Positions 5,829 to 23,637 of a DNA stretch of 64,000 bases are shown here, piece by piece. The first letter of the stretch is position 1. Each line of letters begins with the position of its first letter. Below the pieces are notes generated by a model, which searched no databases, was not told the DNA's origin, and saw only the letters and a program-made list of their open reading frames with translations. The stretch is from Escherichia coli (GTDB lineage: Bacteria > Pseudomonadota > Gammaproteobacteria > Enterobacterales > Enterobacteriaceae): NCBI RefSeq assembly GCF_051903065.1, contig NZ_CP178439.1; one strand, 5' to 3'. The translations under genes and the position numbers were made by a program.

Positions 5829-7613
5829 ATGGGTAAGCCAACAGAAGAGCAAAGACCTGTTATCGAGAATGCTAGCGCAAACAATATGGTGATAGCAGCG
5901 CCTGGATCAGGCAAATCATTCACCATGATAGAAGCGGTTATATCGATTCTCAAAAAGTATCCATATGCAAGAATCGGGATGGTGACCTTTACTCGCGCTG
6001 CAACAAACGCACTTGCAGCAAAGTTACAAAAGCGATTGAGCAAGAAGGATCTTGACCGGGTGCTGGTGGATACTTTTCACGGACTCGTTAAGAAGCAACT
6101 GGACATGATTCGCTGGCCGGGAAAGATGTTGATAGGGCCAGCACAGAGATCTGTCATTCACCGGGCTTTGAAAGAATCCGGTGTAACGATGAAGTTTGCT
6201 GAAGCTGAATTCGTTATTGATGCTATCGGCAGAGAAATGGATACGGATGTGATTTCAGTTCGGCATAACAGACAACAGATCCATTTATTTAATACCTATC
6301 AGGCGTTATGCCAGAAAGACCATGTGGCGGACCTCAATGCTCTTTCAAAATTTGTTGTCGGTCAAATGCATTCGGGAAAAATGCGCACGTTAGATTTGAC
6401 ACATTTGATAGTAGACGAAGTTCAGGATACTGACTCTATACAATTCTCATGGATAGCATTGCATACAAGAGCTGGAGTCTATACGAGTATAGTTGGAGAC
6501 GATGATCAGGCCATCTACTCCTTCAGATCCTCAGGAGGAGTCAAAATATTTCAACAGTTTGAAAAACACTTCAGACCTAACATATTTTACTTAAACACAT
6601 GCTTTAGGTGTGAACCTGAAATTTTAGAGGTGGCCGGAGCACTGATAGGAAAGAATGTTTACCGTTATGCCAAAGAGTTACGCTCGGCAAAAAAGGGAGG
6701 AGGAAAGGTCACTTTTCGTTCATATGTAGATATGGAGGAACAGATACAGGGTATTTTAAGCCTTATAAATCAGGATCCACATGGATGGGCAATTCTAAGC
6801 CGCAATAATGCTCACTTGGATGAGCTAGAAAGTTTGATCGAACAGCCAGTAATTCGTTACGGAGGTAAATCATTCTGGGATGAAAAAGAAACAAGCGATG
6901 TGTTAAGCCTTATGGCCTTTTTCCGACAATCAAATGATCCTCGCTTAATGAAGAGAGTATTGGCATTGTTTGGAGAACAGGAATCAGTTTTGGATGAAGT
7001 GGCATTGAGTATGAGAGGAAGAAAAGTTACTTTTGGCGACCTTGCCATCCCGGAGGACAGTTCTCTCGAAACAAAAACATTACATTCAAACTTCGTGCGC
7101 TTTACCCAGGAAAGTACTGATAAAGTTGAGATAGCAAAACGTTTCGCCAACCTTACGAAATGGATGGAATCGTCGTCAATCAAGATGAGGAGTAATAAAG
7201 GTACAGCAACCTTAACAAAAATTGCTTTAGACACTTGTAAACAGTGGGCAGAAAAGACTGGTTGGATGAATATGATCAATCGTGCTGCTGCAATGTCATT
7301 AGGCCCTAGGAAGAAGGACGAGGAATACAGCCCAGAGAAAGTAGTCCTATCAACCTTGCATGGTTCAAAGGGTCTTGAGTGGAATAAAGTAATAATAATG
7401 AGTTGTAATGCGGATCAGATACCAAGTAAAAGATCAGTTGGGGAGGAGGCAATAGAAGAAGAAAGACGTTTGCTTTATGTTGGATTTACGCGTGCAGAAA
7501 AGCAACTTTTTGTAATGTGGTATGGTGACCCTTCTTTCTTTTTAAGAGAATGCAGTGAAGAAAAGATAAAAGAAGCAGCTAATATTCGAATTTCTCCAGT
7601 TTATACAGAATAA
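5829..7613 (+). CDS. UvrD/Rep-family (SF1) DNA helicase
   Basis: Walker A AAPGSGKS near the N-terminus, DEVQD (DExx box), C-terminal TLHGSKGLEW and YVGFTRAEKQLFV helicase motifs; 594 aa. Confidence 0.85.
   Translation: MGKPTEEQRPVIENASANNMVIAAPGSGKSFTMIEAVISILKKYPYARIGMVTFTRAATNALAAKLQKRLSKKDLDRVLVDTFHGLVKKQLDMIRWPGKMLIGPAQRSVIHRALKESGVTMKFAEAEFVIDAIGREMDTDVISVRHNRQQIHLFNTYQALCQKDHVADLNALSKFVVGQMHSGKMRTLDLTHLIVDEVQDTDSIQFSWIALHTRAGVYTSIVGDDDQAIYSFRSSGGVKIFQQFEKHFRPNIFYLNTCFRCEPEILEVAGALIGKNVYRYAKELRSAKKGGGKVTFRSYVDMEEQIQGILSLINQDPHGWAILSRNNAHLDELESLIEQPVIRYGGKSFWDEKETSDVLSLMAFFRQSNDPRLMKRVLALFGEQESVLDEVALSMRGRKVTFGDLAIPEDSSLETKTLHSNFVRFTQESTDKVEIAKRFANLTKWMESSSIKMRSNKGTATLTKIALDTCKQWAEKTGWMNMINRAAAMSLGPRKKDEEYSPEKVVLSTLHGSKGLEWNKVIIMSCNADQIPSKRSVGEEAIEEERRLLYVGFTRAEKQLFVMWYGDPSFFLRECSEEKIKEAANIRISPVYTE
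7023..7033. repeat. AAAGTWACTTT palindromic motif copy 2
   Basis: AAAGTTACTTT inside the helicase gene (codons K-V-T-F). Confidence 0.6.
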
Positions 7614-7701
7614 TTCGATATGGGCATTTACTTATGCTTAAAGCTATAGTATAAAAACAATGAGCTTAAATATCAGCTCCCAAATTTGAGTAACTTTGCT
7701 T

Positions 7702-7712
7702 AAAGTTACTTT
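7702..7712. repeat. AAAGTWACTTT palindromic motif copy 3
   Basis: AAAGTTACTTT, intergenic; with the half-site AGTAACTTT at 7689-7697 forms a 9-bp hairpin AGTAACTTT-gctt-AAAGTTACT. Confidence 0.6.
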
Positions 7713-8007
7713 CGCGTTAAGCGTTGATTTAGCCGTGAAAAGCGGCCAGCTTAAACAAGCTGTAAGACACCACCGGCAAAATGTCACCTTTGTCGCTGGT
7801 GCACTTCCCATGCCTGAAAAAGGCAATCTGAATTTACCAAACCGTAACTAATTTAGCTCCTCCTGGAGCTATTTTTGTTGCGTACTTCTAATGCCAGATA
7901 GTATAAATCAGGCGGTTCATAGCTTACGGGAGATGAATGACAGGCTTTGCCTTCGTGTTGAAACAAAAAATTGTTTCTTCCTTCTTACTATATATAGGTG
8001 ACCCCAA

Positions 8008-8880
8008 ATGTCTAAAAATAAAGCTCGCAGTAAAGCCCTTCATCAAACCTTTAGTGAAATTATTCCAGAGATGGATAAGGCGCTAAACAAACAGCTCTTA
8101 GAAGTTCTGATGAAATATACAGAACGTGATAATGAACTGATTGTTATTTTGAATGAGGACGGCCCAAATATCATTGAACTTAAGTCTCTTAAGCCTGTGT
8201 CTTTGTTGGCCGAAAAGCTTTCTGCTTATTCAAGCTATTATCATGTGGATGTTGTGGAGCTCGTGGTCAAGAAAATTGATTTCGAAGGAGCTTATAAGCT
8301 TCTTAAAGCTTCCCCAGATGTACCACTTTTTAAAAGCTTAACTGAACTGGATAAATATCTTGTTGAGGAGTTTGAAAAATACGGATTAAATTCATTTCTT
8401 GACGTGGATAATCTGGATTACTCACTTGAAAAAGCCAGTGAACTCAAAAATGAGCAGTTAATAAATTGGGTTTCGGACATCATTTGCAAACGTGAAAAAT
8501 TAACTTTACGTAAGCGTTTTGATGTCGCAGTAAAGGCCCACTACGAAAATGTAGAAAAAATGTATGATACCATTCGTCCGTTAATGAAAAAACTGGGTTT
8601 CCCAGAAGATCTCATGACGCACACCTTTAGTGAGTTAAGCGTTTTTGAAACTAAAGGATGGGACCATGCAATAAAATCGAAAATTGAGACTCTCGCTAAG
8701 CGTGAAACTCAATATTTAGATGATGCGGCTAAAGCAGAGAATCGACGTCTTGTAACAGAGAAGTTGGAGAACTCTTTAGCGATTGCACCAACTAAACCAA
8801 CAAGAAATTGGTTACATATTGCCGGAATTGCCTGTTTGGTAGTCTGCACGTTCATGTATGTAACTAATAAATTTATTTAA
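8008..8880 (+). CDS. Hypothetical protein, C-terminal membrane anchor (ORFan array)
   Basis: 290-aa ORF; hydrophobic C-terminal segment IAGIACLVVCTFMYV; followed by a hairpin element. Confidence 0.55.
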   Translation: MSKNKARSKALHQTFSEIIPEMDKALNKQLLEVLMKYTERDNELIVILNEDGPNIIELKSLKPVSLLAEKLSAYSSYYHVDVVELVVKKIDFEGAYKLLKASPDVPLFKSLTELDKYLVEEFEKYGLNSFLDVDNLDYSLEKASELKNEQLINWVSDIICKREKLTLRKRFDVAVKAHYENVEKMYDTIRPLMKKLGFPEDLMTHTFSELSVFETKGWDHAIKSKIETLAKRETQYLDDAAKAENRRLVTEKLENSLAIAPTKPTRNWLHIAGIACLVVCTFMYVTNKFI

Positions 8881-8884
8881 TCCT

Positions 8885-8916
8885 GTTAAGGGGGAACCCT
8901 AACGGGGCTTCTCTTT
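8885..8916 (+). terminator. Structured GC-run intergenic element E1
   Basis: GTTAAGGGGG-aa-CCCTAAC-GGGGC then T-rich tract, between the stop at 8880 and the start at 8938. Confidence 0.4.
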
Positions 8917-8937
8917 GAACAAATCGAGGAGCGGAAA

Positions 8938-9315
8938 ATGTCATATCTTGAATATATCAATGAAGTAAAAGTGTCCGGGATAGTTATCAGTGCTGTGGAG
9001 AAAAAAATGACTGACCAGAGTATAGGTTTGTTAATAAAGCTCAAAAATAGGATGAAGACAGAAGTTGATGGTGAAATCACTGAGAGAGAATTTTCAGTTC
9101 AAATCAAGGTGTCGCCTGAAATGTATTCAACCTGTTTCACTGGTATAAATCAGGGTGATGAGTTGATGGTCTCCGGTTATATTGTTGTCGATACTATTAT
9201 GATTGAAGGGAGAGAACATCCTCTTGACTACATGAGAGTGGTAGCAACAAGTAAGTTGGCTCACATACCTAAACCTCTAAAAGGTTTTGGACAAAGTAGC
9301 TTTAATCAGATCTGA
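8938..9315 (+). CDS. Hypothetical protein
   Basis: 125-aa ORF, ATG start, same strand as neighbours, followed by a strong hairpin. Confidence 0.5.
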   Translation: MSYLEYINEVKVSGIVISAVEKKMTDQSIGLLIKLKNRMKTEVDGEITEREFSVQIKVSPEMYSTCFTGINQGDELMVSGYIVVDTIMIEGREHPLDYMRVVATSKLAHIPKPLKGFGQSSFNQI

Positions 9316-9322
9316 CATTAAA

Positions 9323-9366
9323 CCCACCCTAAAGGGGAGAAATCCCTTCATGGGATTTCTCCTTTT
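9323..9366 (+). terminator. Structured GC-run intergenic element E2 (rho-independent terminator-like)
   Basis: CCCACCC..GGGG, then an 11-bp stem GGAGAAATCCC / GGGATTTCTCC with loop TTCAT, then TTTT; the CTCC in the 3' arm is complementary to the downstream GGAG ribosome-binding site. Confidence 0.55.
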
Positions 9367-9375
9367 GGAGTCCCC

Positions 9376-10353
9376 ATGAAACAAAAATTTAGGGCTACTG
9401 CAATAAGTAGTAATCAACTTAGTTTTTTTTCTATACTCGATATAGATGAAGATGAAATAACGCAAATAGTTGATTCACCCAAAGAGCATTTAAATGATGC
9501 TTACACGTCCGGATTAAACTTTAAATCAGAAGAAAGTAACATTTCTGAGATAAATTATGATTCTGAAAGGCGTGAAAATCACCTTTATGAAAAATCCAAA
9601 TTACTTAAAAATCAGATTTTGCATACAATTAATTTTGCAACAGAAACAGATTATCTATATACGGTTGAAGAATATAACCCAGATTTGGGTGGTCTGGTAA
9701 TAGAATGGACCCCTGAGGATGTGTATGTTGTTTTTCTATCCGCTATGGAAGAGTCTTTGGAAATCATTAAAGAACTAGTGTTGAGGAGAAAGTTATTCTT
9801 CAAAGATGACAATGGTAATATCACAGTGAATCCACTTTTAGAAGCTGAAACACGGTGGTATATGTCAAAATCATTTGAATACACTTGTTTATCTCATGGA
9901 CTTGATGCATGTGAATTTAGAGCGGAATTAAAATCATGGCTCTATTATCATTCGCATCGTTCGATTAGTGAAAACACGAAATTAGCTGAATGCAGGAATG
10001 ATGATGAAATCATTTTGCATGATTGCAATGACGATATGGGCTGGGACATCTTCTTTGATCAGGATTATTTAATGTCAGAAAAAAAACTGGCTGTTAAATG
10101 GACTGACAGGGAAATTATGGATGTTTACATAAAAGCTTTTAAATCCTCATTAGAGTTGTTTGACGAGCTTGTTTCATGTGATCTGTTAACTAAACGAAAC
10201 GCTTTTGGCAAGTTAGAAATCAATCCAATATTCGAAAATCATTTTGAATGGATCATGTCTGAAGCTTTTGAAATAGTGGGAAATCATCTTGGTTATAATG
10301 TGCCTCAAATCAGGAAACTGATGGCAACTATTTGCCAAATGAATCTCAAATAA
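9376..10353 (+). CDS. Hypothetical protein
   Basis: 325-aa ORF, ATG start 10 nt after element E2. Confidence 0.55.
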   Translation: MKQKFRATAISSNQLSFFSILDIDEDEITQIVDSPKEHLNDAYTSGLNFKSEESNISEINYDSERRENHLYEKSKLLKNQILHTINFATETDYLYTVEEYNPDLGGLVIEWTPEDVYVVFLSAMEESLEIIKELVLRRKLFFKDDNGNITVNPLLEAETRWYMSKSFEYTCLSHGLDACEFRAELKSWLYYHSHRSISENTKLAECRNDDEIILHDCNDDMGWDIFFDQDYLMSEKKLAVKWTDREIMDVYIKAFKSSLELFDELVSCDLLTKRNAFGKLEINPIFENHFEWIMSEAFEIVGNHLGYNVPQIRKLMATICQMNLK

Positions 10354-10410
10354 AATGCCACTGGCAAACATCTGCCAGAGGGCGGTGTTTGCATTTTACC
10401 GGAGTTAAAA

Positions 10411-11469
10411 ATGTCTAATGCCGCTATGAAGTTAAATGAAACATCTTCTGATGCTTATGAAAAATTAGAAGCTCTTCTTTCCCCGGATGTTATAAAGTTA
10501 AAACATTATGTGGATAAAGGTGAGTATCTTTTAGTTCTAGCAAAGGACCTTTTTGGTATTCCAGAAATGGATCCAAAGATGGCTGTGCCTGTTTTCAAAA
10601 CTAAAACCTCGTATCGAGCTCCGCTGAACAAAGACTACATACCAAATCCCCGAATACTTGAACAAGTGGTTAAACTGCTTATCAGTCCGGATATAGATTT
10701 AAGTGTGTGTCTTAAAGGTGAGTCCGGTTCTGGCAAGACTGAAATGGTAATGTACATTAGCCACATGATGAATTGGCCGCTGACAATTAAGCAGATCAAC
10801 AGCAATATTCGAGTTGATGAGCTTGAAGGTGAGCGCAGTCTTAATGGTGGTAATACAGGTTTTGTACACAGCGATTTGGTAACGGGATTTCGTAATGGTC
10901 ACCTCATTCTTCTGGATGAAGTGGACAAAATCGATCCTGATACGGCAGCAAAACTTCACATGCCCATTGAACGTAAGCCCTGGTCACTCAGTGCTAATGG
11001 TGGTGAGGTTATAACTGCTAATGGCTACACGCGATTTATTGGTACTGCAAACACAAACATGAGTGGAGGCGCTCGCCGGTTCGTTTCTTCTCAACGTCAA
11101 GATGCAGCTTTTATAAAGCGGTTCTTGATAGTTGAAATGGAGAAGCCCGACAAAGTTGCTTTAACCAATGTGCTTACTAAACGATATAGCTCTTTGCCTT
11201 TTCAGGTCATTGAGAAGTTCGTAAGAGTAGCGATTGCAGTAAATGACTCTGGTACAGAAGACAGTGTGATGGATATTCGTCAATTAGTAGCTTGGGTTGG
11301 CACGTCGATGACGTTAAAAACCTTTAGTCTTCTTGACACTTTCAAAATAGCTTTTGCTTCTGCTTTACCTTTACATGTGGTCGATCTTGTTCTTCAAGCT
11401 ATAGATCTTTCTCTTGGCGAAGACAAGGATAAATCGCTGGAGTATTTCACAGCAAAAAAGTCGAGTTAG
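10411..11469 (+). CDS. AAA+ ATPase, MoxR/CbbQ/CobS-like
   Basis: Walker A GESGSGKT and Walker B HLILLDEVDK; 352 aa; a vWA-domain partner lies two genes downstream. Confidence 0.7.
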   Translation: MSNAAMKLNETSSDAYEKLEALLSPDVIKLKHYVDKGEYLLVLAKDLFGIPEMDPKMAVPVFKTKTSYRAPLNKDYIPNPRILEQVVKLLISPDIDLSVCLKGESGSGKTEMVMYISHMMNWPLTIKQINSNIRVDELEGERSLNGGNTGFVHSDLVTGFRNGHLILLDEVDKIDPDTAAKLHMPIERKPWSLSANGGEVITANGYTRFIGTANTNMSGGARRFVSSQRQDAAFIKRFLIVEMEKPDKVALTNVLTKRYSSLPFQVIEKFVRVAIAVNDSGTEDSVMDIRQLVAWVGTSMTLKTFSLLDTFKIAFASALPLHVVDLVLQAIDLSLGEDKDKSLEYFTAKKSS

Positions 11470-11780
11470 ATGGGATTTGTTATGAAACCTCTGATATTTG
11501 TATCTCAGAGTTATCCCATCTTGAATTTAGTGCGTTTTTAAGTACGGATGGTGCTGCTACCATTGCTATAGCAAAAAACGGAACTAATTTTACTGGACTT
11601 ATGCAACTGAATAACGACTATTCTTTATTGTTTTATCATGATGGTAAAATAAATATGGAAGGTCTGATTAAACAAATGGAATTAAAAGGTTATATGTATC
11701 AGGGAGCAATGGGCAATGATGATGTTGTTGCTGAGTTTCCCGGTATTCTTTTAATTTCACCAGAGTAGCTTTAATATCAA

Positions 11781-11827
11781 CCCTATCGGGAAATCTTTCC
11801 CGTTGGGGAGGGTTTCCCCTTTTTTTT
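11781..11827 (+). terminator. Structured GC-run intergenic element E3
   Basis: CGGGAAA-tc-TTTCCCG hairpin, GGGGA-GGGTT-TCCCC hairpin, T8 tract; GGGTTTC is complementary to the downstream GAAACCC next to the start codon. Confidence 0.5.
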
Positions 11828-11837
11828 GGAGAAACCC

Positions 11838-12965
11838 ATGACTTTAAATACTTCAATGCTTAACAAAGTATCTGCAAAACAAATCTCTGAGAATTTTGCA
11901 AAATCATATCCAGATTTACTGGAAGGTGCAGTTATAACAAAAATTGAAATAAGTGGCTGTCAAGGATCGCGTCGAACCGATAAAATCGATTTGTCTTATG
12001 ATGGAGATGATATTACGGATCAAAAAAGCGTATCTAAAAGCGAAGTACGCTGGATTGACATAAAAGCCCTTAGCTTCAAAAGTACGATTACCAGCAGAAT
12101 ATCAACTCTTTGCTCACGCTTGTGCATCCGCTATAGCAATATGTGGATTTTACCAGTATCCAGTATGGAAGAGTTTCTGGAAGGGGCCCAAGAGATTGAA
12201 CGAGAGTTTCAGGCAGGTATTCAAAACGTTGTAGACAATTATGAGATGCATATTGAGGCTGAAAAAAATAGAAGCCCAAGAATGTCTTCTTTGATTGATC
12301 AGTTGAAATTAACTAAAGATGATTTCATAAAATCCTTTAGATTTAATATTGCTCACTTTATTCCTTTTACGCCTATTAGCGTTGAAGGTGATGAAACCCA
12401 GGACTACTATCAGGAACAATTGATAACAGATCTGGCAGAAGAAGCAATGAAGGTTTATGAAAAAATTAGCAAAAATAACAATTTGCGCTCAAGTACTATT
12501 GACCGACTGAAGCAAATGCAAAATAAGATCATTAGCTTCATGTTTATACATAAAGAGGCGGCAGTACTTGCAGAAGCTATAAAACACATAATGAATAATT
12601 TACCTAAAGGTGCCATTTCTGAACCTCGCGACGTTGCGGTGTTACAGCAGTGGTTTTATTTCATGAGTGATGCTTCAATGTTAAAGCGTATTATTTCAGG
12701 AGAGCAAAAGGTTACTGACTGGTTGGAATCTATTACCAGATCATTTAATCAAAGCTCACAAACAGAACCGAACGCGCTACAGAACACAGGTATTGAAGCT
12801 ATTTTAGATTCAACAAATGTGTTCCAGGTTGAACCTGTCGTAGAGAACGATATAAATAACAGCACGTTTTCAAACACTGATCCTGTAGCTGAACCTGAGA
12901 AATCAGTTTCGCAACAGGAAGACAATGTTGAAAATGGTTTTGATATCGAGCTCAAAGGCTGGTAA
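11838..12965 (+). CDS. Hypothetical protein
   Basis: ORF in track from 11826 (TTG); ATG at 11838 with GGAGAAACCC upstream preferred; 375 aa. Confidence 0.55.
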   Translation: MTLNTSMLNKVSAKQISENFAKSYPDLLEGAVITKIEISGCQGSRRTDKIDLSYDGDDITDQKSVSKSEVRWIDIKALSFKSTITSRISTLCSRLCIRYSNMWILPVSSMEEFLEGAQEIEREFQAGIQNVVDNYEMHIEAEKNRSPRMSSLIDQLKLTKDDFIKSFRFNIAHFIPFTPISVEGDETQDYYQEQLITDLAEEAMKVYEKISKNNNLRSSTIDRLKQMQNKIISFMFIHKEAAVLAEAIKHIMNNLPKGAISEPRDVAVLQQWFYFMSDASMLKRIISGEQKVTDWLESITRSFNQSSQTEPNALQNTGIEAILDSTNVFQVEPVVENDINNSTFSNTDPVAEPEKSVSQQEDNVENGFDIELKGW

Positions 12966-12984
12966 CTGTTTGCTTTATTAAAAA

Positions 12985-13027
12985 CCCCAGATGGGTACTT
13001 CACCATCTGGGTGAGTACCCCTTTTTT
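12985..13027 (+). terminator. Structured GC-run intergenic element E4, interleaved dyads
   Basis: CCCAGATGG/CCATCTGGG and GGGTACT/AGTACCC dyads interleaved (pseudoknot-like or alternative hairpins), followed by TTTTTT. Confidence 0.5.
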
Positions 13028-13042
13028 ATAAAGAGGTATTCT

Positions 13043-15055
13043 ATGAAATTAGATCTTAAATCATCACCGCGCCATATTAAGCGTTTACAGAATATAGCAA
13101 AAGTCATTAGCGGCTTAGGCGATGTAAGAGTTGTAATAGACGACAATACCAAAGGACCGTATTTTGATCCTGTAAATAAAGTTTGTGTTTTACCAAACGG
13201 CGATTATAGCGATGATGACTTTGTCAGTCTGATTGAAGGTTTTACCTGTCATGAAGCTGGTCATGGTCGCTATACCGACAGCGAGGTTTACAGTGACGCC
13301 TTTAATAGTGTTCTCAAGTCATCTGAAGGGTTTACACGCTTCGATGACGGAATGAATGCAGAGTTTGAGAGCCTCGCTGAGAAACGTAAAGCTTATAGCA
13401 GGGCAAAACGTCTTACCGGGCTTATAAATCTGTTCGATGATGTACAGATGGAAGAGAAGGTTGGTAACGATTATCCGGATGCAAAGCGGCGGCTTGCAGC
13501 CACTTACGCACTGATGGTTAAAGCCGGAAGGATGACTCCTGATATATCTTCTCGTCCGGAAAATCCTGTCCTATTTATTGAGTGGTATCTGCTTAACTCA
13601 TTGCGAGTAAAAGTCCTTCAGCAGGCAGGTCACAAAGAAACACTCGATCCGTTTTTTGACTATGCCCAAAAGATACTTTCTCCAGTAATTTCTGATGTTG
13701 AGGAAATTTTTCATGATGCTCTTGGTTGTGAAAATACTCAGGGCTGTGAATCCCTTGCTCGTAAGACCCTGGCTCTTTTAGAGAGACTGCGGGATGAGGC
13801 AAGGGAACAACAGCAGCAGACAGAGCAGGAGGAGCAGGAGGCATATGATGAATCCGAGACCGAGACCGAGACCGATACCGAATCAGAAGATAAATCGCTT
13901 GAGTCGACTGATAGTCGTGAGGATGATTCTGAGGACGATAGTGAAGGTCAGGCAGATACTTCCGATAACTCTGATCTTGCTCAAGAGGGATGTTCTGAGC
14001 CTTCAGAACTTGCTGAAGATAACGAGGGAAATAATGAACCCACCGGTGGCAATCCCACAGGTGATAACATTATTGAAGACGATACTGATGCGATTAACCC
14101 TTCCGAGAGTGAATCAGATGAAGCCAGTTCGACTAACGTTGAAGATGAAAGTAACTTTTCATCGGCTCAATGGGAGATACTGGCAGATTTGTTGGATGCC
14201 TTTCTTGGCAGTGATGAGGATAGCGAAGATTATCACGATGCTTTGGCTAAAGAGATTGAAGGTATTGCATCAAAAGTATCCGATGACGTGAAAGCCGAAT
14301 TCGGTGCTTCTGAATGGGATATCCCTGATCTCCTTATCGATTTGAATGTTTACAATGAGGCTTTGTCTCTGAGTCATTCAATCGGTAGCGACTTGTCTGT
14401 TTTACAGCAGGTTAAAATGCGTGGCCGAAACAAAACTCATGAGCGTGGAATTACCTTCGATGGAAATCGATTAATTCTGTCACCAATGGGAGTTCGTGAT
14501 GTCTTCAGAGCTCAAAGCGAATCTAAAAATAGAGGGCATGTTGGCCTCGTATTAGTTCGTGATATTTCAGCGTCAATGGCTAATGATGAAAGATATATTC
14601 ATGCCATTAAGTCAGATCTTGCTTTATCGATGGCCGCTGAAAGTTTGTCAAAAATGCATGTCTCCAATATAGTCTTTCCCTTCAAGGAAAGTGAATTTGA
14701 GATTATCAAAACGTTTGATCAAAGCGTTGAGGAATCTCTATCGAAATTCACTCTTGGATGTAAGGGTTATTATACCCCTACGGGATCGGCTTTAATGGCA
14801 GCTGTTGATCTGTTACTTGACAGCCAATTCGATAGGAAAATAATTTTTCTTATAACTGATGGTTATCCGAATAAATCGGAATTTACTATCGGCGAAGTTA
14901 TGGAAAAGGCTAAATGTAATGGAATAGAAATCGTTGGTGTTGGTATTAAGACTGATGAAATAATTGGTTTTGAAACGGACACTTTCGTAACAGTTGATGA
15001 TACTTCTTTATTGTCTATTGAAGTCAGTAAGCTAGTTCATCAAATACTTTCTTAA
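13043..15055 (+). CDS. vWA-domain protein with long acidic linker (CobT/ViaA-like partner of the AAA+ ATPase)
   Basis: C-terminal vWA/MIDAS motifs (VRDISASM, TPTGSA, ITDGYPN); central Asp/Glu-rich low-complexity stretch (ETETETDTESEDKS and onward); 670 aa. Confidence 0.7.
   Translation: MKLDLKSSPRHIKRLQNIAKVISGLGDVRVVIDDNTKGPYFDPVNKVCVLPNGDYSDDDFVSLIEGFTCHEAGHGRYTDSEVYSDAFNSVLKSSEGFTRFDDGMNAEFESLAEKRKAYSRAKRLTGLINLFDDVQMEEKVGNDYPDAKRRLAATYALMVKAGRMTPDISSRPENPVLFIEWYLLNSLRVKVLQQAGHKETLDPFFDYAQKILSPVISDVEEIFHDALGCENTQGCESLARKTLALLERLRDEAREQQQQTEQEEQEAYDESETETETDTESEDKSLESTDSREDDSEDDSEGQADTSDNSDLAQEGCSEPSELAEDNEGNNEPTGGNPTGDNIIEDDTDAINPSESESDEASSTNVEDESNFSSAQWEILADLLDAFLGSDEDSEDYHDALAKEIEGIASKVSDDVKAEFGASEWDIPDLLIDLNVYNEALSLSHSIGSDLSVLQQVKMRGRNKTHERGITFDGNRLILSPMGVRDVFRAQSESKNRGHVGLVLVRDISASMANDERYIHAIKSDLALSMAAESLSKMHVSNIVFPFKESEFEIIKTFDQSVEESLSKFTLGCKGYYTPTGSALMAAVDLLLDSQFDRKIIFLITDGYPNKSEFTIGEVMEKAKCNGIEIVGVGIKTDEIIGFETDTFVTVDDTSLLSIEVSKLVHQILS
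14148..14158. repeat. AAAGTWACTTT palindromic motif copy 4
   Basis: AAAGTAACTTT inside the vWA gene acidic region (E-S-N-F). Confidence 0.6.
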
Positions 15056-15063
15056 TAAACTCT

Positions 15064-15099
15064 ACCCAATCGGGGCAAAAGGCCCCGGTGGGTCTTTTT
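15064..15099 (+). terminator. Intergenic element E5, rho-independent terminator
   Basis: ACCCAATCGGGGC-aaaag-GCCCCGGTGGGT nested hairpin followed by CTTTTT. Confidence 0.6.
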
Positions 15100-15126
15100 G
15101 CTCCATGAAGGAATAAGGAGCAAAAT

Positions 15127-15348
15127 ATGACTCAGATAAAAACTTACCGTGTAGAACATGAAAAAGTCGGTGCGATGCATAAAGTCCGTATTTTCGGACG
15201 TGTTGGTGAAGTTATAAGCAATGATAGCCCTCAGGAAAGAATCTTCCGCGAAGTCACTATAGCGGAGGGTAATAGCCAGCAGGCTGCGTTACTTGTAGAT
15301 AACTACATACAGCGTCTTGAGAATAATGGCTTCACGACTGAAGCATAA
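15127..15348 (+). CDS. Small hypothetical protein (73 aa)
   Basis: ATG start with AAGGAG upstream; flanked by hairpin elements E5 and E6. Confidence 0.5.
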   Translation: MTQIKTYRVEHEKVGAMHKVRIFGRVGEVISNDSPQERIFREVTIAEGNSQQAALLVDNYIQRLENNGFTTEA

Positions 15349-15354
15349 ATGTTG

Positions 15355-15377
15355 AGGGCCCCCGGGCCCTCTTTCTT
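15355..15377 (+). terminator. Intergenic element E6
   Basis: GAGGGCCC-CC-GGGCCCTC perfect hairpin followed by TTTCTT. Confidence 0.55.
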
Positions 15378-15461
15378 AAATTCTGCGTTGTGGGTTTCTC
15401 CCTGTCTTCTGCACCGCAGAAGGCATTGAGAAACTCACAATGCCAGATAAGAGAGATCATC

Positions 15462-16694
15462 ATGACTTATGCATCCCCGGCTCTTCGTCGTAATCCACAG
15501 GAAGTATCTGAACACTTTATTAAACTCGTTCATGCTCGAATTGCTGAAGTGTCTGGCTGGAAGTATATATTCGAAAGAATACCTGCTTTCAAAGACGCTT
15601 GTGCAAAAGCCCCGAGCCAGGTTCCTTGCCCGTTTACTGGCGCAGGGAAATCGAAGTTTCGTTTCCGACAAAAAGACCTTTATACCGGATGTGCGATCCA
15701 TAATGACTTTCCGGTAAATGAGTTTTGCGACGGAATTGATGTTCTGGCGAAATATTATGAATTAAGTAAAACGCAGACTTGCAAAAAGATTCTCTCAGAT
15801 TTTTTCGGGATGGATCTGCATGCTCCGTTAACTGACGCCGACATTGAAAATGAACGACGCTATAAATCAGCAGTTCGTGCCACAGAAACTCTTGACCGAG
15901 AGGAAGTGGCAAAGCGAATGCGAAAACTTGATGTGATGTATCACTATACCGGTGAAATCAAGCCTAATACTCCTGTTGCTTTGTACCTCCGTAATCGTGG
16001 GATCTCCCGCTTACTGAGTCACTTACCAAAGGATTTAGGCTTTAATAACCGGATCTACTATTGGGATAAAGATAAGCAGAAATCGATTATCTATCCGGGA
16101 ATGATTGCGATCTATCGTGACACCCGAGGTCGGCCTCTGACTATTCATAGAACATACGTAGACAAAAATGGTGATAAGGCACCTGTAGAAAATCCAAAGC
16201 TGATGATGAAGCCTCCTGCCGATATGACAGGTGGCTCAATTCAGTTGTTTGACCCTCACTATGATTCAGGTAGTTCGACCTGGACACTGGGAGTGGCTGA
16301 AGGGATCGAGAACGCGCTTTCTGTTGTAGAAGCGACTTCAACACCATGCTGGGCAGCCAGCTCCGCATGGTGCCTTGAAAACGTTACTGTTCCTGATTTT
16401 TTACTGCCTCCGCCGGATGTAAAATCTATAAACTTTTATATCTGGGCGGATAAGGATATTGCTAACTCACAAGGCACTCGTGCCGGTATTGAAGCTGCTC
16501 AGCGACTTCAAAGCCGCATGGTTGAGTTTTTGGCTAAACGATATCCCGCATCAAAGCTGACAATTGAAGTCTTCGAACCAGCACAAGATATTCCTGATGG
16601 GAAAAAGGGTATCGACTGGAACGATGTTCTCCAGTTAACAGGGCAGGATGGATTCCCGATTCACTGGGCTCCTGAATGTCTTAATCAGCTGTAA
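15462..16694 (+). CDS. DNA primase-like protein (zinc-ribbon plus Toprim)
   Basis: N-terminal CPFTGAGKSKFRF..GCAIHNDF resembles the primase-helicase zinc-binding motif; Toprim-like VAEGIENALSV and WADKDIANSQG (DxD); track ORF starts at GTG 15390, ATG 15462 preferred. Confidence 0.5.
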   Translation: MTYASPALRRNPQEVSEHFIKLVHARIAEVSGWKYIFERIPAFKDACAKAPSQVPCPFTGAGKSKFRFRQKDLYTGCAIHNDFPVNEFCDGIDVLAKYYELSKTQTCKKILSDFFGMDLHAPLTDADIENERRYKSAVRATETLDREEVAKRMRKLDVMYHYTGEIKPNTPVALYLRNRGISRLLSHLPKDLGFNNRIYYWDKDKQKSIIYPGMIAIYRDTRGRPLTIHRTYVDKNGDKAPVENPKLMMKPPADMTGGSIQLFDPHYDSGSSTWTLGVAEGIENALSVVEATSTPCWAASSAWCLENVTVPDFLLPPPDVKSINFYIWADKDIANSQGTRAGIEAAQRLQSRMVEFLAKRYPASKLTIEVFEPAQDIPDGKKGIDWNDVLQLTGQDGFPIHWAPECLNQL

Positions 16695-16701
16695 CAACGA
16701 T

Positions 16702-16733
16702 AACTCCCCCGCTTTTTGCGGGGGGGGTTATCT
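16702..16733 (+). terminator. Intergenic element E7
   Basis: CCCCCGC-TTTTT-GCGGGGG hairpin immediately after the stop at 16694. Confidence 0.5.
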
Positions 16734-16773
16734 TATCAATATTATATTTTAAAATTGTATTGATAAGATAACC
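16726..16773. promoter_or_regulatory. 14-bp perfect inverted repeat flanking a 20-bp AT-rich spacer
   Basis: GGTTATCTTATCAA (16726-16739) and TTGATAAGATAACC (16760-16773) around TATTATATTTTAAAATTGTA; sits in a 270-bp gene-free interval. Confidence 0.4.
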
Positions 16774-16904
16774 GCTTTCCTTCGTGATAATTACCTGCCT
16801 TTAAGGTCTTTTCACGGCTGAGATGCTTGCTCAGTTAAATAAATGTGCGGTACTACTGGCTATGGTCGGTTGTATGACATGGTTATTCCATAAACTATTA
16901 AAAC

Positions 16905-16930
16905 CCATAACGGGAGTATTACCGTTATGG
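16905..16930. promoter_or_regulatory. 9-bp inverted repeat, candidate operator upstream of the gene at 16965
   Basis: CCATAACGG-gagtatta-CCGTTATGG, 35 bp upstream of the ATG. Confidence 0.35.
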
Positions 16931-16964
16931 TGATGCTCGTCGTTTTACATCGGAGAGCATTTTA

Positions 16965-17486
16965 ATGAATTTTCAAATTAACGAAGTTTTTAATAAATTT
17001 GCTGCTGTTATAAAATCGCGCATCGTCAATGAACCATCGTCATGCTATTTGCTGCATGATAATGAGATAGATATAACGATTTTGAAACATAGCATATTAG
17101 AAAATGACAGAAACCTGTTGTACGTAGTTCGTCCTTCAGGAACGTGTTTGTTGCGTTGTGACAAATATTTCTATCCGAAATATTATCTTCGTTGCCGTGG
17201 AGATTATAAGTCATTCATATATGTCCATCTTGATCTACATAGTGGTGAAGCTAAAGAAATCACATGGGAGCAAGCAGACGATATGCTGTCTAGTCCAGGA
17301 AAACCCCCATTAAAAGGGAATCTTGGACGATTTGAGTATATAAAAGTTGTGGTTGAGGACCTTCGTATTCGAGGTTACGCTGATTATCTTCCTGCGTATA
17401 ATCTTGATGACCTTCGCCGTTTTGCCTTACAGGACGACCGCCCATCCCTTGTCAGATACATTGACAATGTCATGGCAACGGTCTGA
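16965..17486 (+). CDS. Hypothetical protein
   Basis: 173-aa ORF, ATG start. Confidence 0.5.
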   Translation: MNFQINEVFNKFAAVIKSRIVNEPSSCYLLHDNEIDITILKHSILENDRNLLYVVRPSGTCLLRCDKYFYPKYYLRCRGDYKSFIYVHLDLHSGEAKEITWEQADDMLSSPGKPPLKGNLGRFEYIKVVVEDLRIRGYADYLPAYNLDDLRRFALQDDRPSLVRYIDNVMATV

Positions 17487-20504: not shown

Positions 20505-21368
20505 ATGTTTAAAGAATCTGACCACGTGGAATTTGTTAGTGCCTTTCTTTATCAAAATTTAGGCCTTAATGTTTCCGCTGACGATATAACCGTTCAATTA
20601 TCTGATACTTCGTTCGACAAAGTAACCTTTGATTACGATGTAGATATCGATAATTTAAATTGTATGTTGGATCTCTACATATCTGAGCTAATAAAGCACA
20701 ACGCATCTTACTCCGATTCTATTCTTTTGAAACAAAAAATAATTTATTTTCTTGGAGTATTTAAGAATTTCGGATTTTTTACGTTTGATATTCGCGGATA
20801 TAGTAATACTTTAAGCCCAGTTAAAGTTATTGATATTGTTTCAATGATTATTAATGACTGTGAAGAGTTATCTAAAGCTAATTCTTCTACTGATGCTATA
20901 AGAAATCTTTATCTCGATAAAATGAAGGTGGATGGGAAAGTGTTAGTTGCGAAATTTGCACTTAAACAGTTTTTTCATTCCGACTTTGGTGACTTTATCT
21001 CATTTGTCGAGAAAAGAATTACAGATTGTCTTAATGAAACTTTAAGGATTATCAAAGCTGTTGAACATGGCTTTGTACGTGTAGGGCAGCATAAGATTAA
21101 TCGCCGTATTAATGATGACTTAAAGTTATGCATTGATTTCAATACTGATGATTATCCGGCAAATATGCCAGATATATATATTAAGTTTAACGATACATTT
21201 GATGGGAACGGGGCGTTATATTGTGACAATGATGCCCTCATATCCCTCTATACCGATGTTGCTTCAATTATCAATGTGCCGGTGATGATGGAAGTAAGAT
21301 TGATCAATAAAAGAGGGCGTGTTGTCTGTGATTCTTCGCATTCAACTTACGTATCTCGGCTTTGTTGA
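20505..21368 (+). pseudogene. Hypothetical protein, paralog A; 3' end truncated by IS903
   Basis: Clear paralog of the gene at 22681-23637 (KVDGKVLVAKFALKQFF vs QVDGQVMIARFALQQFW). The ORF runs into the IS903 left end; removing the IS restores a C-terminus similar to the paralog. Confidence 0.6.
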
Positions 21369-22414
21369 ATAAATCGAACTTTTGCTGAGTTGAAGGATCA
21401 GATCACGTATCTTCCCGACAACGCAGACCGTTCCGTGGCAAAGCAAAAGTTCAAAATCACCAACTGGCCCACCTACAATAAAGCCCTCATCAACCGTGGC
21501 TCCATAACTTTCTGGCTGGATGATGAAGCTATTCAGGCCTGGTATGAGTCAGCAACACCTTCTTCACGAGGCAGACCTCAGCGCTATTCTGACCTTGCCA
21601 TCACGACTGTGCTGGTCATTAAACGCGTATTCAGGCTGACCCTGCGCGCTGCGCAGGGCTTTATTGATTCCATTTTTTCTCTGATGAACGTTCCGCTACG
21701 CTGCCCGGATTACAGCTGTGTCAGCAGGCGGGCAAAGTCGGTTAATGTCAGTTTCAAAACGCCCACCCGGGGTGAAATCGCACACCTGGTAATTGATTCC
21801 ACCGGGCTGAAGGTCTTCGGTGAAGGCGAGTGGAAAGTCAAAAAGCATGGCCAGGAACGCCGCCGTATCTGGCGTAAGCTGCATCTCGCCGTTGACAGTA
21901 AAACACATGAAATCATCTGCGCTGACCTGTCGCTGAACAACGTTACGGACTCAGAGGCCTTCCCCGGGTTAATCCGGCAAACCCACCGGAAAATCAGGTC
22001 AGCCGCCGCCGATGGCGCTTACGATACCCGGCTATGTCACGATGAACTGCGGCGTAAGAAAATCAGCGCGCTTATCCCTCCCCGAAAAGGTGCGGGTTAC
22101 TGGCCCGGTGAATATGCAGACCGTAACCGTGCAGTGGCTAATCAGCGAATGACCGGGAGTAATGCGCGGTGGAAATGGACAACAGATTACAACCGTCGCT
22201 CGATAGCGGAAACGGCGATGTACCGGGTAAAACAGCTGTTCGGGGGTTCACTGACACTGCGTGACTACGATGGTCAGGTTGCAGAGGCTATGGCCCTGGT
22301 ACGAGCGCTGAACAAAATGACGAAAGCAGGTATGCCTGAAAGCGTGCGTATTGCCTGAAAACACAACCCGCTACGGGGGAGACTTACCCGAAATCTGATT
22401 TATTCAACAAAGCC
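21358..22414 (+). mobile_element. IS903 (IS5 family), complete, 1057 bp
   Basis: 18-bp terminal inverted repeats GGCTTTGTTGAATAAATC at both ends; 9-bp direct target duplication ACGTATCTC at 21349-21357 and 22415-22423. Confidence 0.9.
21435..22358 (+). CDS. IS903 transposase
   Basis: 307-aa ORF from GTG 21435 (track extends upstream to TTG 21390); spans nearly the whole element between the inverted repeats; matches my recollection of the IS903 transposase. Confidence 0.85.
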   Translation: MAKQKFKITNWPTYNKALINRGSITFWLDDEAIQAWYESATPSSRGRPQRYSDLAITTVLVIKRVFRLTLRAAQGFIDSIFSLMNVPLRCPDYSCVSRRAKSVNVSFKTPTRGEIAHLVIDSTGLKVFGEGEWKVKKHGQERRRIWRKLHLAVDSKTHEIICADLSLNNVTDSEAFPGLIRQTHRKIRSAAADGAYDTRLCHDELRRKKISALIPPRKGAGYWPGEYADRNRAVANQRMTGSNARWKWTTDYNRRSIAETAMYRVKQLFGGSLTLRDYDGQVAEAMALVRALNKMTKAGMPESVRIA

Positions 22415-22662: not shown

Positions 22663-22680
22663 AAATTCGAGGTAGTGTAT

Positions 22681-23637
22681 ATGACACATTCATCTGATGA
22701 TAAAAACTATGTCCGAGCAGTTCTGAGTTATCTTGGCATAGATTTTGATGAGGCGGATATAGTATTAAGTGTTTGCCATTGTCAAAGTGACGAGCTTTCT
22801 TTTACCTGTAATATCAAAGCTATTGAACTCAAGAATGCTGTTGATTTATATGTCGATAGTATCTCTGAGAATGAAATAGAAGCTTTAAACAGAGAATCTT
22901 TAAAATCGCGACTCTGTTACTTTCTTGAGGTGTTTGACGCAGTCTCTGGTCAGTACCTTGAAATTTCAGGAAAACACTTTGCAACTAGTCGTTTTGAATA
23001 TGATGATGTTTGTAGTGAAGTTCTTAGCATGTCTAATGATGTTTCTCAGTCGAAAGGTTATGACCGGGATGAATATAACAGACTGATGCAGGTTGATGGT
23101 CAGGTTATGATTGCCCGTTTTGCTTTGCAACAGTTCTGGGATACTCATTTTATTGGACTAATAACATTTGTATCTGAGTCTATAACATCGAGCCTCTATA
23201 AAGCTTATGAAACTTTTAGTGATATTAGTTTGGCTTGCTATAAACTGAGTGAATATTCTTATTCACGCTCTATCAACAGTGAATTGACCCTTAATATTTC
23301 ACTTAAAGAAAATGACTTCTGTGAGGACCTATCTGATTGCTATATGGAAGATGAGGCTTTACCTTCTGGTAGGGTAATTTCTCGACGCAACAATGACTCC
23401 ATAATAAGTATTTATGAGAGCTATGCTGCGGCTTCTTATATTCCGATGATTGCATCTTTGGAAGTCGTTGATGAATACGGCGAAGTGGTTACTGACCTCT
23501 GCCATACCGTTTATGTTTCAGAGTTAACCGGTGGGCGGATTAAAATCCACGACCGTAATGACTTAGTATCTGAAGTTTTCGATAACCTAAGAAATTTAAA
23601 TCTTGCAGTTGGAGATTCAGTTTCACAAGCTGCTTGA
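22681..23637 (+). CDS. Hypothetical protein, paralog B (intact)
   Basis: ATG 22681 with GAGGT upstream; 318 aa; C-terminal half aligns with paralog A. Confidence 0.6.
   Translation: MTHSSDDKNYVRAVLSYLGIDFDEADIVLSVCHCQSDELSFTCNIKAIELKNAVDLYVDSISENEIEALNRESLKSRLCYFLEVFDAVSGQYLEISGKHFATSRFEYDDVCSEVLSMSNDVSQSKGYDRDEYNRLMQVDGQVMIARFALQQFWDTHFIGLITFVSESITSSLYKAYETFSDISLACYKLSEYSYSRSINSELTLNISLKENDFCEDLSDCYMEDEALPSGRVISRRNNDSIISIYESYAAASYIPMIASLEVVDEYGEVVTDLCHTVYVSELTGGRIKIHDRNDLVSEVFDNLRNLNLAVGDSVSQAA

Follow-up and report, generated by a model that had tools for sequence, protein, structure and literature searches.

An acidic, predicted disordered linker in a CobT-like vWA protein encoded on IncHI2 plasmids

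Introduction

What is an extremely acidic, repetitive stretch of more than a hundred codons doing in the middle of a vWA gene? The question is raised by a 64,000-nt stretch of Escherichia coli DNA (contig NZ_CP178439.1, below called the window), in which the open reading frame (ORF) 13043–15055 on the plus strand encodes a 670-aa protein labeled in RefSeq merely as “VWA domain-containing protein” (WP_000762699.1). An original prediction, made from the sequence alone, placed an acidic low-complexity linker at 13794–14120 of this gene, quoted the peptides ETETETDTESEDKS and DDSEDDSEGQ from it, both of which are indeed contained in the encoded protein, expected the linker to be prone to length variation, and regarded a long alternative-frame ORF across it as spurious. 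We find that the stretch is a real but ordinary disordered acidic spacer of an already known kind. With a probability of roughly 0.75, it is a polyanionic tether that joins an M48-like N-terminal domain to the shaft and vWA/MIDAS part of a CobT-type adaptor, whose partner is most likely an AAA_5 ATPase.

Results

The acidic linker and the domains it joins

The protein consists of three parts: an M48-peptidase-like N-terminal domain, the acidic low-complexity linker, and a C-terminal vWA/MIDAS domain. Domain borders were derived from an alignment of 30 homologs (24–91% identity), and AlphaFold2 was run with a 30-sequence alignment.

13043..15055, plus strand: vWA gene, 670-aa CobT-like protein with exactly the sequence of WP_000762699.1 from IncHI2 plasmids
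13043..13801, plus strand: N-terminal domain, aa 1–253, zincin/M48-peptidase-like fold
13802..14149, plus strand: acidic low-complexity linker, aa 254–369 (homolog alignment, composition, AlphaFold2)
14150..15052, plus strand: C-terminal domain, aa 370–670, with a helical N-terminal extension, a segment at aa ~456–498, and a vWA fold with MIDAS
14408–14536, plus strand: low-confidence conserved segment before the MIDAS strand, candidate “shaft”, aa 456–498 (alignment and AlphaFold2)

The linker of 116 residues contains 45 D+E, three K+R and nine hydrophobic residues, giving a net charge of –42. Its most acidic 100-aa window has a net charge of –39, and since the runner-up among the 67 long stop-free segments of the 64 kb reaches only –16, with the median at –7, this acidity is far outside chance. 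The originally predicted span corresponds to aa 251–360, and its borders can now be refined to aa 254–369 by alignment, or to aa 274–368 by the AlphaFold2 confidence score (pLDDT below 50); residues 254–273 prolong the last helix of the N-terminal domain (aa 232–273), which in the model continues into the region where the acidic tract begins. The linker combines predicted disorder, depletion of hydrophobic residues, and lack of conservation of both sequence and length between conserved flanks; it is set between two independently folded domains of conserved length, both of which have confident AlphaFold2 models. Two micro-repeats were detected in it by TRF and are considered below.

The fold of the N-terminal domain comprises a helix, a three-stranded sheet and then a helix carrying the HExxH motif HEAGH (aa 70–74, nt 13250–13264). 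This motif is invariant in all 30 homologs and is found in 137 of 138 distant representatives of the family. Because of this near-invariance, the adaptor may be an active zinc peptidase and not a scaffold alone.

The vWA identity of the C-terminal domain, assumed in the original prediction, is supported by a Pfam VWA match above the gathering score (E = 2e-7) and by the MIDAS residues D507-x-S509-x-S511 (nt 14561–14575), T578 and D606, all invariant in the homolog alignment. The closest structures, at a Foldseek E of ~2e-7, are the MIDAS domain of Rea1/MDN1 and the vWA domain of NorD in its complex with NorQ. Ahead of the MIDAS strand, the Arg/Gly-rich segment aa 456–498 has invariant residues (R460, R468, G469, R476, G483, F488) together with low-pLDDT patches at 458–471 and 488–494. 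We also observe in nr a 584-aa “aminotransferase” that is 100% identical to a part of the vWA protein (35% of the query); this record is probably chimeric or misassembled.

Divergence of the linker among homologs

The IncHI1-type homolog (of pHCM1 and other plasmids) also has 670 aa. Identity between the IncHI2 and IncHI1 proteins is 69–70% in the N-terminal domain and 71–72% in the C-terminal domain vs. 25–26% in the linker, where compensating indels are present. The ratio of nonsynonymous to synonymous substitution rates (dN/dS) between two IncHI1-type homologs is 0.15 in each of the two flanking domains and 0.45 in the linker. Judged from these ratios, constraint on the linker is relaxed but not absent, and as dS is similar across the three parts, its mutation rate is not elevated.

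The flanking domains hardly vary in length: the N-terminal domain has 252–253 aa in 25 of the 30 homologs, with N-terminal extensions in four (268 or 292 aa) and 238 aa in Shewanella, and the C-terminal domain has 299–302 aa in all 30. In the linker, neither length nor sequence is invariant: it spans 26–164 aa, carries a negative net charge in every homolog (–7 to –52) and has few hydrophobic residues. In several lineages it is built from tandem peptide repeats of varying copy number: (QQQD[G/S/D])n repeats form 47–152 aa of the linker in the Yersinia/Buttiauxella group, a 16-aa unit is found in another group, Shewanella has a 16-aa unit with a period of 48 nt, and yet another group has (EQ)n. 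At the DNA level, the 15-nt repeat of Buttiauxella is present in ~19.5 copies, and the 48-nt repeat of Shewanella, in 6.8.

A linker-less profile of the protein, compared to 1.84 billion cluster representatives, retrieved 8,369 proteins at E ≤1e-3, of which 2,991 at E ≤1e-10. In this wider family the linker was measured as the longest hydrophobic-poor polar segment in the best 138 proteins of at least 500 aa at no more than 50% identity; this composition-based measure was used because hmmalign put acidic linkers onto the acidic start of the C-terminal domain, misplacing the inserts. The segment starts at about residue 210, has a median length of 90 aa (range 7–186 aa) and a median net charge of –20, with 91% of the representatives at –5 or lower. 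Its length is correlated with the total protein length (r = 0.92).

Length alleles among IncHI2 plasmids

The gene is present in ~1,400 plasmid records, 1,118 of which are matched by a 100-nt probe spanning the two micro-repeats:

13823..13841, plus strand: 9-nt tandem repeat GAGCAGGAG, about two copies, encoding EQEEQE (TRF)
13856..13879, plus strand: hexanucleotide tandem repeat, three copies of GAGACC and one of GATACC, in frame, encoding ETETETDT (TRF span 13854–13881)

Across these ~1,118 IncHI2 plasmids, the length of the gene takes five values (1998, 2007, 2013, 2019, and 2025 bp), and all differences fall in the two in-frame micro-repeats, the GAGACC/GATACC hexamer having three to six copies and the 9-mer one or two. 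This agrees with the expectation that the linker is prone to length variation. The record counts given below are approximate, as they were estimated by bands of identity and by sampling at even intervals.

1998 bp: three hexamers, with the 9-mer in one copy (NZ_MF083142.1)
2007 bp: three hexamers, ETDTDT (~446 records, a lineage at 98.8% identity)
2013 bp: four hexamers, either ETETETDT, the form of the window (~110 records), or ETDTDTDT (~498 records)
2019 bp: five hexamers (~60 records)
2025 bp: six hexamers (NZ_MT604108.1)

The reading frame is kept in all five alleles. Four-copy alleles of the hexamer occur on both single-nucleotide polymorphism backgrounds, and hence the copy number has changed more than once. 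The length polymorphism is neutral-looking; the alleles of the hexamer and the 9-mer could be of some minor use in typing IncHI2 lineages.

Gene neighborhood

By its sequence, we assign the window to the backbone of an IncHI2 resistance plasmid; the 6.3 kb surrounding the linker recur with 100% identity in many conjugative plasmids of the IncHI2A/MOBH type from Salmonella, E. coli, and Enterobacter. The transfer genes trhF-trhU-trhN lie a short way upstream of the vWA gene, and the local gene order is UvrD-like helicase, AAA_5 ATPase, DUF3150, vWA gene, a 73-aa ORF, and a DUF7146+Toprim primase-like gene:

5829–7613: UvrD-like helicase, module neighbor
10411..11469, plus strand: AAA_5 ATPase (MoxR/CobS/NorQ/midasin-type by profile and sequence matches), presumed motor partner of the vWA protein
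11826..12965, plus strand: DUF3150 protein, whose gene is always flanked by those of the ATPase and the vWA protein
15390..16694, plus strand: DUF7146 and Toprim primase-like gene, conserved downstream neighbor of the vWA gene

The order AAA_5 – DUF3150 – vWA – primase is retained in a Shewanella locus, where the vWA protein is only ~24–27% identical, and in Buttiauxella too. The module as a whole (UvrD-like helicase … AAA_5 – DUF3150 – vWA – small ORF – DUF7146/Toprim; window positions 5829–16694) is common to IncHI2, Buttiauxella, and Shewanella elements, and the DUF3150 – vWA – small-ORF core is also seen in the short stretches of IncHI1 that were examined.

The ATPase gene has an AAA_5 profile match with E = 5e-28, and its product matches PDB sequences of the midasin AAA modules (7e-21), NorQ (2e-9), CobS (2e-8, over nearly the full length), and CbbQ. 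In MoxR/AAA_5 and vWA motor–adaptor pairs, the gene for a vWA domain with a complete MIDAS adjoins that for an AAA_5 ATPase; the plasmid genes have this arrangement, and the pairing is kept in the distant loci. CobN or other cob genes are found neither in the annotated 30-kb stretch nor in related loci, the neighbors being tra genes, the UvrD-like helicase, DUF3150, and the primase. The vWA and DUF3150 proteins have no match among the PADLOC defense models, where the AAA protein has only weak generic ATPase matches, and tblastn of the vWA protein against a phage collection yielded zero matches. Our literature search found no function for DUF3150 or for von Willebrand proteins on IncHI2 plasmids. 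In a paper on SXT/R391, deletion of s067, s068, and s070, which may be homologs of the module genes, is reported to cut transfer 10-fold or less; we mention it as a lead only.

Similarity to CobT and other motor–adaptor systems

The closest architectural parallel is CobT, the adaptor of the CobNST cobaltochelatase (PDB 9UKA and related entries), which has an M48C-peptidase-like N-terminal domain, a disordered linker of ~90 residues, and a vWA C-terminal domain with a shaft (10.64898/2026.07.21.739949). The N-terminal domain of CobT docks on the small domain of CobS, the shaft, situated just upstream of the MIDAS strand, enters the pore of the CobS ring, and the client CobN is positioned between the two CobT domains, while the linker was never resolved (10.64898/2026.07.21.739949). 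The plasmid vWA protein has the same three-part plan of an M48-like domain, a disordered linker (~90–116 residues in the two proteins), and a vWA-MIDAS domain; both C-terminal domains have a helical extension and a flexible segment ahead of the MIDAS, and both proteins are encoded with a CobS-like AAA_5 ATPase. Residues 456–498 precede D507 by 9–49 residues, and Q373–R413 of CobT have the same offset before D422; by this analogy, we infer that the plasmid segment may be the equivalent of the shaft that CobT inserts into the ATPase pore. CobT differs in its genomic context, as the plasmid protein is encoded on a conjugative plasmid with DUF3150, primase, and UvrD-like helicase neighbors, with no CobN or cobalamin genes nearby. 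CobT entries are not among the Foldseek PDB matches, probably due to the April 2026 cut-off of the library.

Other systems share parts of this plan. [quoted passage not shown] In midasin/Rea1, a flexible, unresolved D/E-rich region tethers the MIDAS domain to AAA_5-type ATPase modules (PMC6286127). The nearest structural counterpart of the plasmid vWA domain is the Rea1 MIDAS domain, and the partner ATPase is closest in sequence to the midasin AAA domains, but midasin is a single eukaryotic polypeptide of ~5000 aa, with a far longer acidic region and pre-60S assembly factors as the client. The NorQ–NorD and CbbQ–CbbO systems are likewise encoded by two genes, for an AAA_5 ATPase and a vWA adaptor, with NorD among the top structures and NorQ/CbbQ among the sequence matches; they differ in the N-terminal regions and in the clients (nitric oxide reductase and Rubisco).

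By analogy with CobS–CobT, the vWA adaptor would pair with the AAA_5 ATPase whose gene lies 1.6 kb upstream, its N-terminal domain docking at the outer face of the ring, and its C-terminal domain inserting a loop into the ring pore and gripping the client via the MIDAS site. The tether would let both halves of the adaptor engage the ring and the client simultaneously. For this, the linker would need only to be flexible, soluble, and non-sticky, and selection would therefore keep its composition, rich in acidic residues and nearly free of hydrophobic and basic ones, rather than its sequence or exact length. Assembled from short in-frame DNA repeats, it would gain or lose units by replication slippage, which would account both for the length alleles found in isolates and for repeat arrays that differ greatly in distant homologs.

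Alternative explanations

The ORF crossing the linker in the alternative frame does exist, with an offset of +1:

13794..14291, plus strand: +1-frame ORF, 165 codons, ATG start, not a gene (six-frame ORF, codon composition, homolog comparison)

Could it be a real overlapping gene for a basic 165-aa protein? It begins with ATG, the +1 frame contains no stop over 169 codons spanning the linker, a length reached in just 3.9% of synonymous resamplings (longest +1 run 102 ± 32 codons), and in the IncHI1 homologs this frame is open too (159 and 106 codons). However, only 6% of the linker codons have T at position 2, compared to 31% elsewhere in the gene, and this scarcity leaves +1 stops unable to form, keeping the frame open. 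The IncHI1 peptides are unrelated to the IncHI2 one, the run in pHCM1 is shortened to 106 codons, changes in the hexamer copy number modify the +1 peptide as well, and the substitution pattern in the linker agrees with coding in frame 0 (frame-0 dN/dS 0.45). Thus we see neither a conserved ORF or peptide nor constraint in the +1 frame, an overlapping gene is extremely improbable, and the ORF, in line with the original prediction, is best read from its codon composition as a by-product.

Two other explanations give the tract itself, or its repeats, an active role. The acidic tract might be a module in its own right, either a pseudo-ligand of the MIDAS or the pore that auto-inhibits the adaptor, or a polyanionic mimic of DNA or of the client in plasmid DNA processing. 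MIDAS sites bind carboxylates, in favor of the pseudo-ligand variant; D/E-rich linkers recur beside MIDAS domains in ChlD and midasin; the negative charge is conserved (–5 or lower in 91% of the 138 representatives), with dN/dS of the linker below neutral; and the gene has DNA-related neighbors, the UvrD-like helicase and the primase. At the same time, the tract contains no conserved residue or motif, varies from ~7 to 186 aa and is absent altogether from some members, and its counterparts in the CobT and Rea1 structures are not resolved even with the MIDAS docked, all of which makes such a module unlikely. A more specific variant would have the D/E tract beside the MIDAS act in the plasmid protein, ChlD, and midasin alike as a carboxylate pseudo-ligand held in the MIDAS or the pore until displaced by the client, here gating a possibly proteolytic HExxH adaptor on a conjugation or replication client (for example, DUF3150 or the primase); this we regard as a long shot. 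As for the micro-repeats, at least five length alleles in a backbone otherwise differing by ~1% might bring to mind a contingency locus that switches the protein activity by phase or antigenic variation. However, units of 6 and 9 nt never break the reading frame, and switching at a phase-variable locus would come from shifts of the frame or of the promoter spacing; copy numbers are low (3–6), and an allele changes ~2–4 residues in a disordered tract of 116 aa. Moreover, Pfam shows neither signal nor surface-type domain in the vWA protein, its partner is a cytoplasmic-type ATPase, and thus a contingency locus is very unlikely.

The preferred reading, a disordered tether in a CobT-type adaptor, also has points that weigh against it. 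On the side of the tether, nine of the 138 representatives are essentially without a linker, and hence the core function does not require a long tether, while the consistently negative charge across the family, a linker dN/dS that is 0.45 and not ~1, and the almost equal total lengths of the IncHI2 and IncHI1 proteins despite the linker divergence suggest more than a passive spacer. On the side of CobT, TIGR02442 gives the window protein 33.5 bits vs. a cut-off of 779, with the curated CobT/CobS models all far under threshold, and the sequence match to CobT in PDB is marginal (E ~1e-3 over 34 residues, in the vWA part only). Pfam CobT or CobT_C models have no match to this protein either, and the PHROG “CobT” match has only E = 2.4e-4. 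As the curated models score far below threshold, the cobalamin context is absent, and other neighbors are conserved, we do not class the plasmid protein as CobT, but by its architecture it would work like a CobT-type adaptor.

Other features of the window

GC-rich hairpins followed by T-runs are observed after nearly every gene of the module (11788–11818, 12986–13011, 15069–15089, 15354–15371, and 16704–16726), and the region 10000–17200 contains 16 terminator-like sites compared to 5.4 ± 2.4 expected. This suggests gene-by-gene punctuation of the transcript or structured intergenic elements. Compared to Rfam at gathering thresholds, the entire window gave no match.

Relative to the IncHI2 plasmid NZ_CP037959.1, the window has a 1057-bp insertion at 21358–22414, bordered by a 9-bp target duplication, ACGTATCTC, and containing a DDE transposase ORF (21390–22358, IS5-family, IS903-like). 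The insertion truncates the 3′ end of a hypothetical gene (20505–21368), reducing the product from 312 to 287 aa. The products of this gene and of the hypothetical gene 22675–23637, located one at each side of the insertion, are paralogs that share 26% identity along 286 aa (E = 4e-31).

Discussion

The linker itself is of little consequence, and the context of its gene is more useful. It belongs to an uncharacterized module of CobS-like, DUF3150, CobT-like, and primase genes in the backbones of IncHI1 and IncHI2 resistance plasmids. The vWA protein family is very large, with the 2,991 cluster representatives retrieved at the stricter threshold, and the invariant HExxH motif adds interest to the module. 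The new CobST structures provide a concrete mechanistic template for the role that this module may have on plasmids.
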